NCBI GenBank assembly: GCA_965248195.1
Contig: CBDFIQ010000002.1
Location: 1,600,001-1,664,000 of the forward strand
DNA length: 64,000 nucleotides
Source of the DNA: Longimicrobiales bacterium
GTDB lineage: Bacteria > Gemmatimonadota > Gemmatimonadetes > Longimicrobiales > Gaopeijiaceae
Reading direction: 5' to 3'
Numbering within the stretch: position 1 is the first letter of the stretch; every line of letters begins with the position of its first letter. This document shows, piece by piece, positions 27,001 to 30,000 of this stretch. The position numbers are program-made.

Positions 27001-30000
27001 TCGTGATCGCCGATGAGCACGCAGGCCTGGCAGCTGCGGTCCGCCGCTTCCTGCCCGAGGCACGCCGTCAGAGGTGTACGGTCCATCTGCAGCGTAATGT
27101 GGGGGCGAGGGTCCCCCACCGCCTACGCAAGCGCGTGGCGCGTGAGGTCTCGGTGATCTTCCAGACATCCGGACTCGCCGAGGCGAAGAAGCTCCTGGGC
27201 GAGTTCGGCGCACGCTGGAAGAAGGAGCTGCCCGAGGCCGTGGAGGTCCTGGAGCGGGGCTTCGGGGCAGCGACGCAGTTCTACGCGTTCCCCGAGGCGC
27301 ACTGGCCCCGGCTGCGTACCACCAACAGCCTCGAGCGGCTGCACGGCGAGATCAAACGCAGGATCAAGGCCGCCGGCGCCTTCCCGGACCGGGCCAGCGC
27401 CCTCAGGCTCATCACGGCCGTCGCACTCAGGACCACACACGTCTGGGGCGACCGGCGTTACCTCGACCTCTCACTCCTCCAGAAACAGGAGGTCGCCCAA
27501 GCAGCCTAGCCGAAGGCGAGGAGCTTCCTCCGCTTTTACACACAAATCGGGACTTGACCGTGTCCGACTCCGTCGAGAACGGGTAGAATCCCGACGGTAT
27601 TCCCCAGCTTTGTGGCGAACTGGGGGACTAACGGCCTTCCAGCAGTCGATGCCCCCGTGAGTGGTACGCACAGATTGCGGCTCTGAGCGCCCGGCCATAC
27701 GTTACTGCGACCGCCGCCTATAACCTTACAGATGGAGGTGAAGGAATGGCTTTCGGGAAAGTCACGAAGTTGGGAGTAGGAGCCGCAGCGCTTACCCTTA
27801 TCGGGATCGCGGGTATCGGGTTCGCTCCTGCGCCGACTCAGCTTCCGACCGTCACGGTGCACCTCAGCCCTACCTGAGGATGCTGCAGCCAGTGGGTGGG
27901 TCACCTACGAGACAACGGTTTTGAAGTAGCACTCTTCGAGGTCGATGACATCGCGGCACACCAAGAGGAGCACGGAGTCCCTGCCGAGTTCAGAGGGTGT
28001 CACTCGGCCCAGGTGGGAGGCTACATGGTCGAGGGCCACGTTCCCGCGGATTTGCTCAAGCGCTTCTTGGAGGAGCATTCGAGCATGGCAGGCATCACCG
28101 TGCCCGGCATGATCATGGGTCCACCAGGGATGGAAGGGTCGGTGTCGGTGCCCTATGCCGTTCTGACGTTCGACCGGGAAGGCAAGAGCACGATCTACGA
28201 GTCGCGACGTTCTGAAGTTCGAGTAGGAAGGTAATAGCACGATCTGCGAGTCGCGCTGACGGCTCAGCTTAGGCTTCAGGTAACCCCGCTCGAGGCTCCG
28301 GCCCCGGGCGGGGCTTCTGTTGTCGCCTCAGGCCCCCGACGCGTCCGGTCGCAACGCAGGCTTGGCCTGCCTATCGCTCTGACACTAGGACGGGATCTAT
28401 GTCGAAGGTTGTTCCGAAGCGTGTGACGGCTGAGATCGAGGGTGACTTCGTCGTCTTCCTTATCGGGATGCGAATCAACAAGCTCTGGAAGGTCCACAAG
28501 TGGCTCCCCGTCTTCCGAGCCATGCCCAGAATGATCCGCGAGCTCGAGCAGCGTCCTGAATCAGGGTTCCTCGGACACATCATGAGCCTTGGCGTGATCG
28601 TGCAGTATTGGCGGTCCTTTGACGACTTGGAGACATACGCCCGGAACGCCGACCAACTGCACTGGCCCGCCTGGGTCGACTTCAACAAGCGCATCGGCGG
28701 GAGTCGTGGCGACGTGGGTATCTGGCACGAGACGTACCGAGTCCGCGCTGGAGAGTACGAGTGCGTGTACAGCGGAATGCCACCCCTTGGTCTGGCGAAA
28801 GCGACCGCGACCACGGACGCCGTGGGCGAACTCGAGTCAGCACGGGGTCGGATCGAGCGTAACTGAGACGCTGACTTGTTGATTCGTGCCGCTGTAACGG
28901 AGGACTCTGAGGCCATCTGGGGCATCTTCCACGAGGTAGTCTCGACTGGTGACACCTATGCCTACGCTCCTGACACTGGCCGAAGCGAAGCGCTGCGGCT
29001 TTGGATCGAGGAACCCCAATCGACCTACGTGGCGGTGGACGAGGGGGGAGTCGTTGGCACGTATTACCTGAAGCCCAATAAACCTGGGCTGGGCGCACAT
29101 GTGTGCAACGCGGCGTACATGGTTACGAGTCAAGCACGGGGCCAGGGCCTGGGACGCGCAATGTGCGAACACTCGATTGCCGAGGCACGCCGACTCGGCT
29201 ATCGGGGCGATGCAGTACAATCTGGTCGTGGCTACGAACGAAGGAGCTATCCGGCTCTGGGAGAGGTTGGGGTTCACGATCACCGGCAGATTGCCGGAGG
29301 CGTTTCGTCACGCCGAGCATGACTTCGTGGACGCAGTGGTGATGTACCGGCTGCTCTAAGCCGTTCTCACCACCTGGATCCGACCTGAGGATGTGAGGGC
29401 GCCACGTAAACAGGAGGGTAGCCCCAGTGAAGCCTCGGCTAGCTGTGTTGGACATGGTCGGAACGACGGTCGAAGCAGGGCCGGAAGTGTCGGAAGCGTT
29501 CCGTGAGGCGTTCGGCCGGGTGGGGGTCACCCTCCCGGAGGACGCGATAGATGGGGTGCGTGGCCGGTCGAAGGAAGAGGCCGTTGCGGCGCTGGCCGCG
29601 GCCTATCTCCCTGAGCTGGATGACCCGACGAAGGCGGCTGGCGAGATCTTCTCGACGTTTCGTTCGATTCTCCTCGTCCGTTACGAGACGGGGTCGAGGC
29701 CGGTCTCAGGAGCTCGCGCCGTTATGGAAGATCTCAAGCGTCTTGGCGCTCACGTCGTTCTGACGACCGGCCTGGATCGAGAGACCGCGAATCGAATCCT
29801 GCGAAACCTCAGCTGGGAGTCCCTGGGTCTCAGCGGGGTCGTCACCGGCGACGATGTCGAACGAGGTCGCCCGGCACCTGACCTGATTCATGCGGCTATG
29901 GCGTTGGTCGGCGAGGACGAGTCGGCGTCCGTGTTGGTCGTGGGTGACACGATCTCGGATCTCGAGGCCGCCGCTCGGGCTGAAGCGGGCTGGAGTGTCG

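Follow-up and report, generated by a model that had tools for sequence, protein, structure and literature searches.

A gene on the forward strand of a Longimicrobiales bacterium genome (Gemmatimonadota) is very probably a true UGA-selenocysteine gene, in which an in-frame TGA would be read as selenocysteine (Sec) within an exported CopG/DUF411 protein; judged at the level of sequence, this reading has a probability of roughly 0.88. The gene occupies positions 27746..28234 of the window, which is the whole stretch of 64,000 nucleotides that was analysed, and consists of 162 codons followed by TAA. The signature of recoding is plain in the sequence. The same TGA recurs in relatives with conservation on both of its sides, it is followed by a Sec-specific hairpin like those of the FdhA and SelD genes, which accompanies TGA in 119 of the 120 metagenome contigs listed, the synonymous sites of this hairpin are frozen, and the genome combines a complete Sec machinery with the use of TGA as an otherwise ordinary stop; together, these observations argue for a real Sec gene.

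Under translation table 11, the gene falls into two open reading frames, 27746..27877 (43 amino acids) and 27896..28234 (112 amino acids, GTG start, the frame called by gene callers), while translation with TGA as U yields a single frame of 162 amino acids whose sole odd codon is U44. Retranslation therefore confirms the earlier note, which had described a 162-codon frame split by the gene caller at one in-frame TGA. A Shine-Dalgarno-like GGAGG, read off the sequence, lies at 27734..27738 on the forward strand, 7 nt 5' of the ATG. The protein matches Pfam DUF411 (PF04214) with 68.2 bits against a gathering cut-off of 27, and it is the only DUF411 copy that a family profile search found in this genome. 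The match spans residues 83-129 (27992..28132) and contains G84-C85-H86 and E96-G97-H98-V99-P100, together with the methionines M122 and M129 (PGM...PGM), which were placed by alignment with 6wis_A. No NCBIfam model matches the protein, and a weak Glutaredoxin Pfam match covers residues 36-75 (E 0.0054).

Alignment with the solved CopG 6wis_A (phmmer, E 5e-23, residues 36-150) pairs 'SPT-U-GCC-SQW' with 'DAN-C-GCC-KDW', so that the TGA (27875..27877, Sec44) stands in the column of the first Cys of CxCC, exactly where it had been placed before. The U-G-C-C motif (27875..27886), which is a UxCC also readable as UxxC, lies at the N-terminus of helix 45-56 in a thioredoxin-like fold. At the N-terminus, where the earlier note gave a signal peptide, there is a hydrophobic segment, LGVGAAALTLIGIAGIGFA (residues 9-27, 27770..27826), with a Kyte-Doolittle 19-residue mean that peaks at 2.01. 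The segment has no lipobox Cys and may serve as an export signal or a membrane anchor.

Taken at face value, the two frames of table 11 would encode two products, a hydrophobic peptide of 43 residues, terminated by the TGA, and a cytoplasmic DUF411 fragment of 112 residues that starts from the GTG at 27896. About 90 related clusters among the best 120 are annotated in this manner, most of the 120 being fragments of 92-116 amino acids that are 63-96% identical and comprise the part after the TGA alone, which bears out the earlier report that close relatives are called as post-TGA fragments; the full-length forms among the best 120 are at most 58% identical. However, the 112-residue product would begin only after the export segment, strand 1 and the UxCC motif, all of which the fold needs, and the 18 nt from the TGA to the GTG are in frame and code for the invariant G-C-C...W, which makes a pair of separate products extremely improbable.

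The machinery required for a single recoded product is encoded in the genome, as had been proposed, and profile and tRNA searches recovered each component as well as known selenoproteins. A tRNA-Sec gene at C2:1575603 scores 66.7 bits in Rfam and has the anticodon tca according to ARAGORN, SelA is present, and SelB, with a score of 318.8 bits, exceeds its cut-off of 242, with positions 2-344 of the 581-position model matched within an open frame of 664 amino acids. SelD is also present, and its own gene contains an in-frame TGA, as do the FdhA and FdhA-like genes of this genome. TGA is at the same time the commonest ordinary stop, closing 543 of 1015 long open frames. Among the genomes with the Sec form, 13 of 14 encode SelA, the exception being a genome that is 78% complete; this co-occurrence hardly discriminates, because 250 of the 314 genomes of the family have SelA.

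The putative SECIS hairpin (27892..27908) begins 14 nt 3' of the UGA and has a predicted dG of -8.9 kcal/mol. Its 5' arm (27892-27898, GUGGGUG) and 3' arm (27902-27908, CACCUAC) form a 7-bp stem around the loop GGU (27899-27901), which lies 21 nt 3' of the UGA; the GTG start of the 112-residue frame is located within this hairpin. Bacterial SECIS elements have a loop 16-37 nt from the UGA, a stem of at least 4 bp and a G in the apical loop, and the hairpin agrees with this description in its stem, loop distance and apical G. It also resembles the hairpins of the cell's own FdhA (UGA at C2:2783465), FdhA-like (C2:1603136) and SelD (C1:691320) genes, which have stems of 7-8 bp and a triloop that starts with G. 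The triloops are GUU, GUC and GUU in these three genes as opposed to GGU here, with GUU in three relatives of the present gene, and the spacers after the UGA are 12, 12 and 27 nt in comparison with 14 nt here. No bulged U is evident in the hairpin. The E. coli fdhF SECIS is a similar short stem-loop near its UGA.

Structural support for the hairpin comes from frozen synonymous sites and from the contrast between Sec and Cys forms rather than from covariation or stability. The complete 7-bp hairpin is found at the fixed place in 14 of 14 Sec forms as opposed to 1 of 27 Cys forms, where 5 bp are kept in six cases, 6 bp in one and 7 bp in one. When 35 distinct Sec rows were considered, 97.6% of 245 pair cells were paired, versus 65.7% of 525 in the Cys rows; conservation of the residues W-V-x-H-L by itself accounts for about 5 bp of this pairing. 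In 5 of 36 Sec forms, the closing pair is missing, so that the stem has 6 bp and the loop 5 nt. Genome-wide, only 0.92% of 128,174 TGAs have a hairpin like the 7-bp one 8-30 nt downstream. In 11 relatives (59-80% identical), the nucleotides ACC TGA, TGC TGC and TGG GTG GGY CAC CTA are invariant, and the hairpin Leu is CTA in all 11, whereas another invariant Leu is spread over five codons. Stability relative to shuffled sequences is unremarkable (MFE z -0.34 for 60 nt, +0.68 for 40 nt and -1.43 for 23 nt), in line with the caveat of the earlier note (z -0.63). Compensatory changes were seen in none of the 7 pairs, the sole variation being U-A to U-G, and the shuffle control for covariation is uninformative since the columns are invariant. 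An Rfam scan of 27000-29000 with E values up to 10 returned nothing at the hairpin and two chance-level matches elsewhere (Termite-leu and mir-645).

The shortness and unexceptional stability of the hairpin could suit readthrough of the UGA by a standard tRNA (a near-cognate Trp, Cys or Arg tRNA) or through local context, with no involvement of selenocysteine. This is nevertheless very improbable, given that the column is an invariant Cys in homologues and thus forms a classic Sec/Cys pair, and that the hairpin matches the SECIS hairpins of the same genome, in which all Sec genes are present. Furthermore, a metagenome search with a pattern that allowed TGA, TGC or TGT at the codon (TGH followed by the hairpin) returned 119 contigs with TGA and one with TGC among the 120 contigs listed, and among these matches the upstream '...TVYKSPT' is kept in the 119 contigs with TGA.

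The distribution of the TGA points in the same direction. A DUF411 match is found in 261 of the 314 genomes of the family, and among 41 of these loci that were read, 14 have TGA at the Cys1 column, which extends the 10 of 13 loci reported earlier. A scan of GTDB species genomes added 22 new cases, with TGA at this column in 31 of the 80 best loci. Pooled over the 41 family loci and the best 80 GTDB loci, there are at least 36 distinct Sec-form and at least 76 distinct Cys-form domains, and the carriers of the Sec form belong to Gemmatimonadota, Rokubacteria/Methylomirabilota and 'Deltaproteobacteria' MAGs. In a tree built after masking of the Sec column, 4 changes suffice for the Sec label, compared to a mean of 30.7 for shuffled labels, and none of 500 shuffles was as low; the Sec forms thus represent a few related clades, and sequence counts are not counts of independent events. 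Some Sec/Cys pairs occur within one genome, and there is one apparent Sec-to-Cys reversal. Upstream of the TGA, codons -10, -9, -8 and -2 keep their amino acid while using 3-4 synonymous codons each, and an ATG start codon with a hydrophobic N-terminus lies about 43-72 codons 5' of the TGA in 14 of 14 Sec forms. A GGAG-like motif precedes the start codon in 11 of these 14 genes and is absent before L024, L038 and L040.

A nonsense lesion in a pseudogene, or an assembly error, would also place a TGA inside the frame. The gene's upstream neighbour, at a distance of 236 nt, is an IS256-type transposase, no copper operon surrounds the gene, and in one relative, L019 (G230), the C-terminus has diverged and appears frameshifted. 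However, the same TGA recurs across independent assemblies, in at least 36 distinct genes, and also in at least 119 contigs from metagenomes, amino acids are conserved with synonymous variation on both sides of it, and the gene is the genome's only DUF411 copy. A lesion or an assembly error is therefore close to refuted. With the Sec/Cys pair, the two-sided conservation, the Sec-specific hairpin and the machinery taken together, the selenocysteine reading of the earlier note is supported by the criteria that sequence can provide.

Assembled metatranscriptome contigs of two studies span the unchanged TGA (27725-27921, 27782-27921 and 27797-27921), for which DNA carry-over is a possible source. 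Cover in the RNA libraries has gaps at 27564-27727 and, in some runs, in parts of 27933-28055, and the contigs share the end 27921; this pattern is not interpretable.

The gene neighbourhood is not indicative of a particular function. No copper genes were found among the 16 neighbouring ORFs in the window or, at 10 other Sec-form loci, among the 28 flanking ORFs, and a conserved neighbour was found neither here nor at those 10 loci. HAD hydrolase and DUF5916 genes show partial synteny, within the genus only.

The predicted structure resembles CopG. The AF2 model has a pLDDT above 90 in the core and below 50 in residues 1-25, and Foldseek aligns it with 6WIS/6WJE with an E value of 6e-13, a TM-score of 0.87 normalised by target length and an rmsd of 2.0-2.3; identity to solved CopG is 36-38% across 124-127 aligned columns. 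Glutaredoxins and NrdH are the next-best folds. In passages of the review PMC7558416, CopG is described as a copper protein of the periplasm whose Cu4 cluster sits on CxCC and two methionines, and its proposed task is oxidation of Cu(I) or transfer of copper to CueO; its linkage to copper genes (copA, cusCBA, cueO/cutO) is called frequent, not universal. Like CopG of Pseudomonas aeruginosa (6WIS/6WJE) and CutG of Rhodobacter capsulatus, the present protein has an N-terminal segment of putative export type. It shares the thioredoxin-like fold of P. aeruginosa CopG, and the x-C-C, C-H and E-G-H-V-P motifs and the two PGM methionines align. Across an alignment of 14 Sec forms, C46, C47, C85, H86, H98, M122 and M129 are invariant, and the reading of M122 and M129 as ligands follows the wording of PMC7558416. 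Unlike in CopG and CutG, Sec replaces the first Cys, the gene is unlinked to copA, cus and cueO genes, and the Ser before C85 is mostly replaced by Gly in Sec forms (28 of 36, as opposed to 0 of 76 Cys forms).

These features leave room for a true selenoprotein that is not a copper protein, an alternative that concerns function and shares the recoding with the preferred explanation. Under this alternative, the likeness to CopG would be confined to the fold, and UxxC would be a thiol/selenol-disulfide oxidoreductase site acting on a substrate other than copper, which could be a protein disulfide or a different metal or metalloid. The missing copper genes in the window and at the 10 other Sec-form loci fit such an enzyme, as do the Sec at the helix N-terminus, which is the place of the attacking Cys in thioredoxin-fold enzymes, the weak Glutaredoxin match with glutaredoxins and NrdH as next-best folds, and the change from Ser to Gly before C85. 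On the other hand, CopG is 36-38% identical, and the CxCC cysteines, C85-H86, H98 and both PGM methionines are kept, with CxCC and two methionines named as Cu4 ligands in the cluster passages of PMC7558416. We consider a function outside copper unlikely, although clearly more credible than any reading that dispenses with selenocysteine.

In the thioredoxin-fold UxxC selenoproteins of PMC13188914 Table 1 (Sec-thioredoxin, Sec-glutaredoxin, DsbA-like and DsbG-like, among others), Sec likewise takes the N-terminal position of the motif, where helix 1 starts; its Cys partner follows three residues later (U44...C47 here), and a coding-region SECIS lies directly 3'. The present protein differs from them in its extra Cys (UxCC) and in its C-terminal half, which is specific to DUF411 and contains putative His and Met ligands, and its partner is likely a metal cluster, not a substrate disulfide. 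The same table lists the SO_0444 family Cu/Zn efflux transporter (UxC), the cation-transporting ATPase E1-E2 (UxxC), the CopZ-family 2Fe-2S protein and a YHS-domain protein, which, like the CopG form described here, are predicted to carry Sec in place of a metal-binding Cys and have copper or heavy-metal handling in common with it. Their folds and families are unrelated to it, and none of them is a multinuclear copper-cluster site.

Under the preferred reading, codon 44 of an exported thioredoxin-fold CopG/DUF411 protein would be decoded as Sec by the cell's SelB and tRNA-Sec, directed by the hairpin (a 6-7 bp stem with a G-rich apical loop) within the W-V-G-H-L codons 14 nt after the UGA. This reading comprises three inferred steps: Sec would actually be inserted at codon 44, the mature protein would work outside the cytoplasm, and a selenolate would take the place of the first CxCC cysteine. 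In Pseudomonas CopG, this site and two methionines together hold a tetranuclear copper cluster, according to PMC7558416. Sec could be a copper ligand there, softer and more nucleophilic than Cys, and/or the residue that attacks in a UxxC redox pair serving Cu(I)/Cu(II) interconversion or handover. Sec at the first position of CxCC speaks for a nucleophilic or redox function, and selenium may act as a cluster ligand or a redox centre. More specifically, the Sec44 selenolate may bridge the copper atoms of the tetranuclear CopG cluster, a tentative assignment that we hold to be possible but less probable than its absence.

The family appears to be new among selenoproteins, as the earlier note had proposed. 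DUF411, PF04214 and CopG are absent from the whole of Table 1 of PMC13188914, which comprises 119 prokaryotic families and subfamilies (2026), and CopG/DUF411 does not occur in the BSepDB text or supplement, deep-Sep or the Haft preprint. Among the papers listed, literature searches found nothing linking DUF411 or CopG to selenocysteine or selenoproteins, CopG matches being unrelated eukaryotic COPG or genome papers and DUF411 matches mostly concerning DUF4114 and similar names, and literature on Gemmatimonadota selenoproteins contained nothing on CopG/DUF411 by title or abstract. Deng et al. 2026 (Cell Rep) reportedly describe a Methylomirabilota MAG with 63 selenoproteins, a set that could in principle list CopG/DUF411.

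CopG/DUF411 would accordingly be an addition to the list of prokaryotic selenoproteins that extends over at least 36 species genomes of three or more phyla, and further over at least 119 contigs from metagenomes, along with about 90 shortened protein clusters among the best 120. It also exposes a systematic annotation error, in which close relatives in public protein sets are cut at the TGA, and its natural Sec/Cys pairs offer bioinorganic chemistry material for testing the role of the first CopG CxCC cysteine. To our knowledge, Mo/W and Ni are the metals with established ligation by Sec in natural proteins, and copper would be new. If Sec44 bridges the copper cluster, it would be the first natural copper-selenium metallocluster. 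If the proposal is true, Sec at the UxxC position would mark CopG as a redox catalyst of Cu(I)/Cu(II) interconversion, not a passive binder, and in Gemmatimonadota, Rokubacteria and uncultured bacteria related to them, the handling of copper would be tied to selenium supply.

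Under the standard bacterial code, the CopG/DUF411 gene divides into two forward-strand open reading frames, one of 43 aa (27746..27877) and one of 112 aa with a GTG start in the same frame (27896..28234), and translation with TGA as selenocysteine joins them into a single frame of 162 aa (27746..28234, +), in which the TGA at 27875-27877 (U44) is the sole odd codon. A GGAGG lies 7 nt 5' of the ATG, residues 9-27 form a hydrophobic stretch (maximum Kyte-Doolittle 19-residue mean 2.01), and Pfam places DUF411 (PF04214) on residues 83-129 with 68.2 bits against a cut-off of 27. 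The solved Pseudomonas CopG (6wis_A) aligns with the whole mature part, residues 36-150 (E 5e-23), such that its C-G-C-C lies under U44-G-C-C and the VPGM..G.PGME motif coincides in both, which bears out the earlier note's single frame with a TGA at the first Cys (Cys1) of CxCC. An AlphaFold2 model built from 14 Sec forms, i.e. DUF411 genes with TGA at the Cys1 column, has a mean pLDDT of 76 with core blocks at 88-94, and its helix 45-56 starts immediately after U44. In the PDB, two CopG entries, 6WJE and 6WIS, match this model best (E 6e-13, TM 0.87 by target, rmsd 2.0-2.3), and glutaredoxin- and NrdH-like folds rank far below them. The protein belongs to the CopG/DUF411 fold family and keeps all of its conserved residues; it is encoded in single copy, with no second DUF411 gene in the genome.

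The Sec machinery and further selenoproteins previously listed for this genome were found again: tRNA-Sec (Rfam 66.7 bits; ARAGORN anticodon tca), SelA, and SelB, a 664-aa frame that scores 318.8 bits, above cut-off, against positions 2-344 of the 581 in the model, together with an in-frame TGA in each of SelD, FdhA and an FdhA-like gene inside the window. The latter, a second molybdopterin enzyme gene, at 2686-4179 (G000:C2:1602686-1604179), has its TGA at 3136 within 'CSRA-U-HAPTV' and matches TIGR01553 only piecewise (137.8 bits, below cut-off). Genome-wide reassignment of TGA is ruled out, since TGA is the commonest ordinary stop and ends 543 of the 1015 open frames of at least 500 codons; near the CopG gene it closes 6 of 14 Pfam-supported ORFs.

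A DUF411 match is present in 261 of the 314 genomes of the organism's family. The 41 loci examined there (30 best matches, 8 further matches flagged for an internal TGA and 3 second copies) have TGA at the Cys1 column in 14 cases and TGT or TGC (Cys forms) in 27, so the recurrence reported earlier now stands at 14/41, and the 14 are a lower bound because 128 more family matches lie outside the listed set. In the remaining flagged matches the TGA is an ordinary terminal stop. Among the best 80 loci retrieved from GTDB species genomes with a profile of the 14 Sec forms, 31 carry TGA (9 duplicate family loci and 22 new ones), which is not a frequency because one of the two scan patterns (WV[GV]HL...) favours Sec forms. 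Family and GTDB loci together comprise at least 36 distinct Sec-form and at least 76 distinct Cys-form domains. Going by their record titles, the genomes with a Sec form are Gemmatimonadota, to which the window itself belongs (MAGs of Longimicrobiales/Gemmatimonadales), along with Rokubacteria/Methylomirabilota (6), 'Bacterium HR33' and two MAGs titled 'Deltaproteobacteria'. Furthermore, an ATG lies about 43-72 codons 5' of the TGA in all 14 family Sec forms, followed by a hydrophobic N-terminus and preceded in 11 of them by a GGAG-like motif. In 11 close relatives the amino acids P-10, T-9, V-8 and P-2 are constant while 3-4 synonymous codons are used, a hallmark of upstream sequence that is translated in the TGA's own frame.

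A candidate SECIS hairpin, GUGGGUG-GGU-CACCUAC (27892-27908, +; dG -8.9 kcal/mol), starts 14 nt after the UGA, and the comparative evidence for this candidate is strong. In 11 relatives (59-80% protein identity) ACC-TGA, TGC-TGC and TGG-GTG-GGY-CAC-CTA are invariant at the nucleotide level; the hairpin Leu is CTA in 11/11, a rare codon at 63% GC, and other invariant residues of the same relatives vary in codon use (a second Leu in 5 codons, Gly and Pro in 3-4). The full 7 bp occur at the fixed position in 14/14 Sec forms versus 1/27 Cys forms of the family, and a hairpin of this kind follows, at a distance of 8-30 nt, only 0.92% of the 128,174 TGA triplets in the genome. Counted over every distinct sequence, the bases pair in 97.6% of the 245 Sec-form pair cells and in 65.7% of the 525 Cys-form cells, the second figure being no better than that of shuffles. 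The most telling pairs involve synonymous or flanking-codon positions, and pairs 24-40, 25-39 and 30-34 form in 35/35, 35/35 and 30/35 Sec forms versus 27/75, 32/75 and 26/75 Cys forms. When metagenomes were scanned with the hairpin sequence fixed and the critical codon left open (TGH, i.e. TGA, TGC or TGT), 119 of the 120 contigs listed had TGA and one had TGC, with very diverse flanks that included UDCC, UECC, ULCC and DPG-U variants; by inspection of their alignment, this pattern is matched by none of the genome sample's 76 Cys forms. The sole TGC contig (L245, match 151-184) retains the hairpin and may have switched from Sec to Cys very recently, with its SECIS still in place.

The caveat that the hairpin's MFE does not beat that of shuffles holds (z = -0.34 at 60 nt, +0.68 at 40 nt and -1.43 at 23 nt). 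In addition, about 5 bp are dictated by the residues W-V-x-H-L alone, and no pair changes on both sides among the distinct Sec forms. The hairpin is like the genome's own SECIS hairpins, namely those of FdhA (7 bp, loop GUU, 12 nt after the UGA) and SelD (8 bp, loop GUU, 27 nt after), and a possible 7-bp alternative in the FdhA-like gene (loop GUC, 12 nt after); its loop is GGU here and GUU in three Sec-form relatives. The recurring TGA, coding on both sides, the Sec-form-specific hairpin and the Sec machinery thus favour the Sec reading already proposed, and on this sequence evidence we put the probability that UGA is recoded to Sec in the CopG gene at about 0.88.

Mapped on the tree, the Sec/Cys label requires only 4 changes, where shuffled labels require 30.7 on average, and branches with good support make at least 2 of the 4 unavoidable; the Sec-form counts are not independent, because Sec forms fall into few related clades. 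A Cys form (TGC) of a Rokubacteria MAG (L134, 1609-1665) falls inside the well-supported Sec clade of Rokubacteria (SH-aLRT 97) with its hairpin lost or degraded (W-V-A-H-V), and it looks like a Sec-to-Cys reversal with SECIS loss. Both forms occur together in three genomes, G189 (L016/L047), G230 (L019/L048) and G256 (L014/L049), where the Sec copy is about 62-69% and the Cys copy 44-50% identical to the window protein; the two forms are subfamilies of paralogues and not alleles. Species of the window's genus have either the Sec or the Cys form. The Sec form of G230 (L019 = L067, G230:C371), a genome that also has the Cys-form paralogue L048, has unrelated residues after 'GPPGMEGP' and an early stop, which suggests that this copy is frameshifted or decaying.

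Assembled contigs of four metatranscriptome runs from two studies were placed on 27400-28600. Three of them (27725-27921, 27782-27921 and 27797-27921) span the TGA, reach more than 31 nt beyond it in both directions and leave 27875-27877 unchanged. One of the three derives from a variant strain, whose substitutions, as we read them, introduce residues typical of the relatives (L40H, S41N, Q49R) and spare the hairpin. These contigs are compatible with a single transcript across the TGA, at the transcript level only and with DNA carry-over possible. In each of the four runs, contigs break off at 27559-27561 and continue in different ways, which is what the border of a multi-copy element should produce. 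Upstream of the CopG gene, and 236 nt from its start, is the transposase of the IS256/Mutator family (26328-27509; PF00872, E 5.5e-100), and the element ends near 27559/27560. The region carries several mobile elements, including an IS3-type pair at 16115-17568 (-) with an HTH_Tnp_1 ORF and an rve integrase-core ORF.

In the review PMC7558416, CopG is described as a periplasmic protein that uses CxCC and two methionines to bind a tetranuclear Cu cluster, aids copper resistance under anaerobic conditions, and is proposed either to oxidise Cu(I) or to donate Cu to the multicopper oxidase. Sec44 would stand in for the first Cys of CxCC, and because the motif includes a C1-x-x-C4 pair where helix 1 has its N-terminus, the Sec form would also be a UxxC protein, UxxC being the arrangement seen most often in selenoproteins with a thioredoxin fold (Table 1, PMC13188914). 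This would favour a nucleophilic or redox function at that position over a merely structural one. Selenium as a ligand of the copper cluster is a much less likely proposal than the recoding, and the lack of copper genes beside the gene, here and at 10 other Sec-form loci, counts against a copper role. Residue 52 is Gly in 32/36 and Val in 4/36 Sec forms, and most Cys forms have Glu, Asp, Lys or Ala there; since its codon forms the hairpin loop, the preference is imposed by the RNA. Residue 84 (27995-27997), before C85-H86, is Gly in 28/36 Sec forms (Ser 5, Ala 2, Thr 1) and Ser in 65/76, Ala in 11/76 and Gly in 0/76 Cys forms, and is thus a protein-level co-change adjoining the site, a second-shell residue covarying with Sec.

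As the earlier note had observed, close relatives in public protein sets are annotated as post-TGA fragments, here of 92-116 aa and named 'hypothetical protein' in most of the best 120 clusters, and NCBIfam has no model for the window protein. The top-scoring database protein, P0002, has 278 aa with both Glutaredoxin and DUF411 Pfam matches and shares 45% identity with the query across 79% of the latter; it may be a fusion or a tandem form of DUF411. DUF411, PF04214 and CopG are absent from the 119 families and subfamilies of the complete Table 1 of a 2026 review (PMC13188914), in agreement with their claimed omission from the listed prokaryotic selenoprotein families, and all three are likewise missing from the deep-Sep and BSepDB texts, one BSepDB supplement (~4 million characters) and the Haft preprint. 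Full-text searches, which took in Haft & Tolstoy 2025 through the PMC13188914 table only and did not extend to older surveys' supplements or to Deng et al. 2026, found no literature linking DUF411 or CopG to selenocysteine. As far as we have found, the family is unpublished, and its sequences argue that Sec-form CopG is a real, widespread selenoprotein family that would use the ordinary bacterial Sec mechanism. In five Sec forms (L010-L014, of G305, G310, G312, G254 and G256) the terminal stop, right after '...YESR', is also TGA, and therefore about 110 codons would separate the Sec-UGA from the stop-UGA in one mRNA, which makes these genes a natural test case for hairpin-dependent UGA discrimination.
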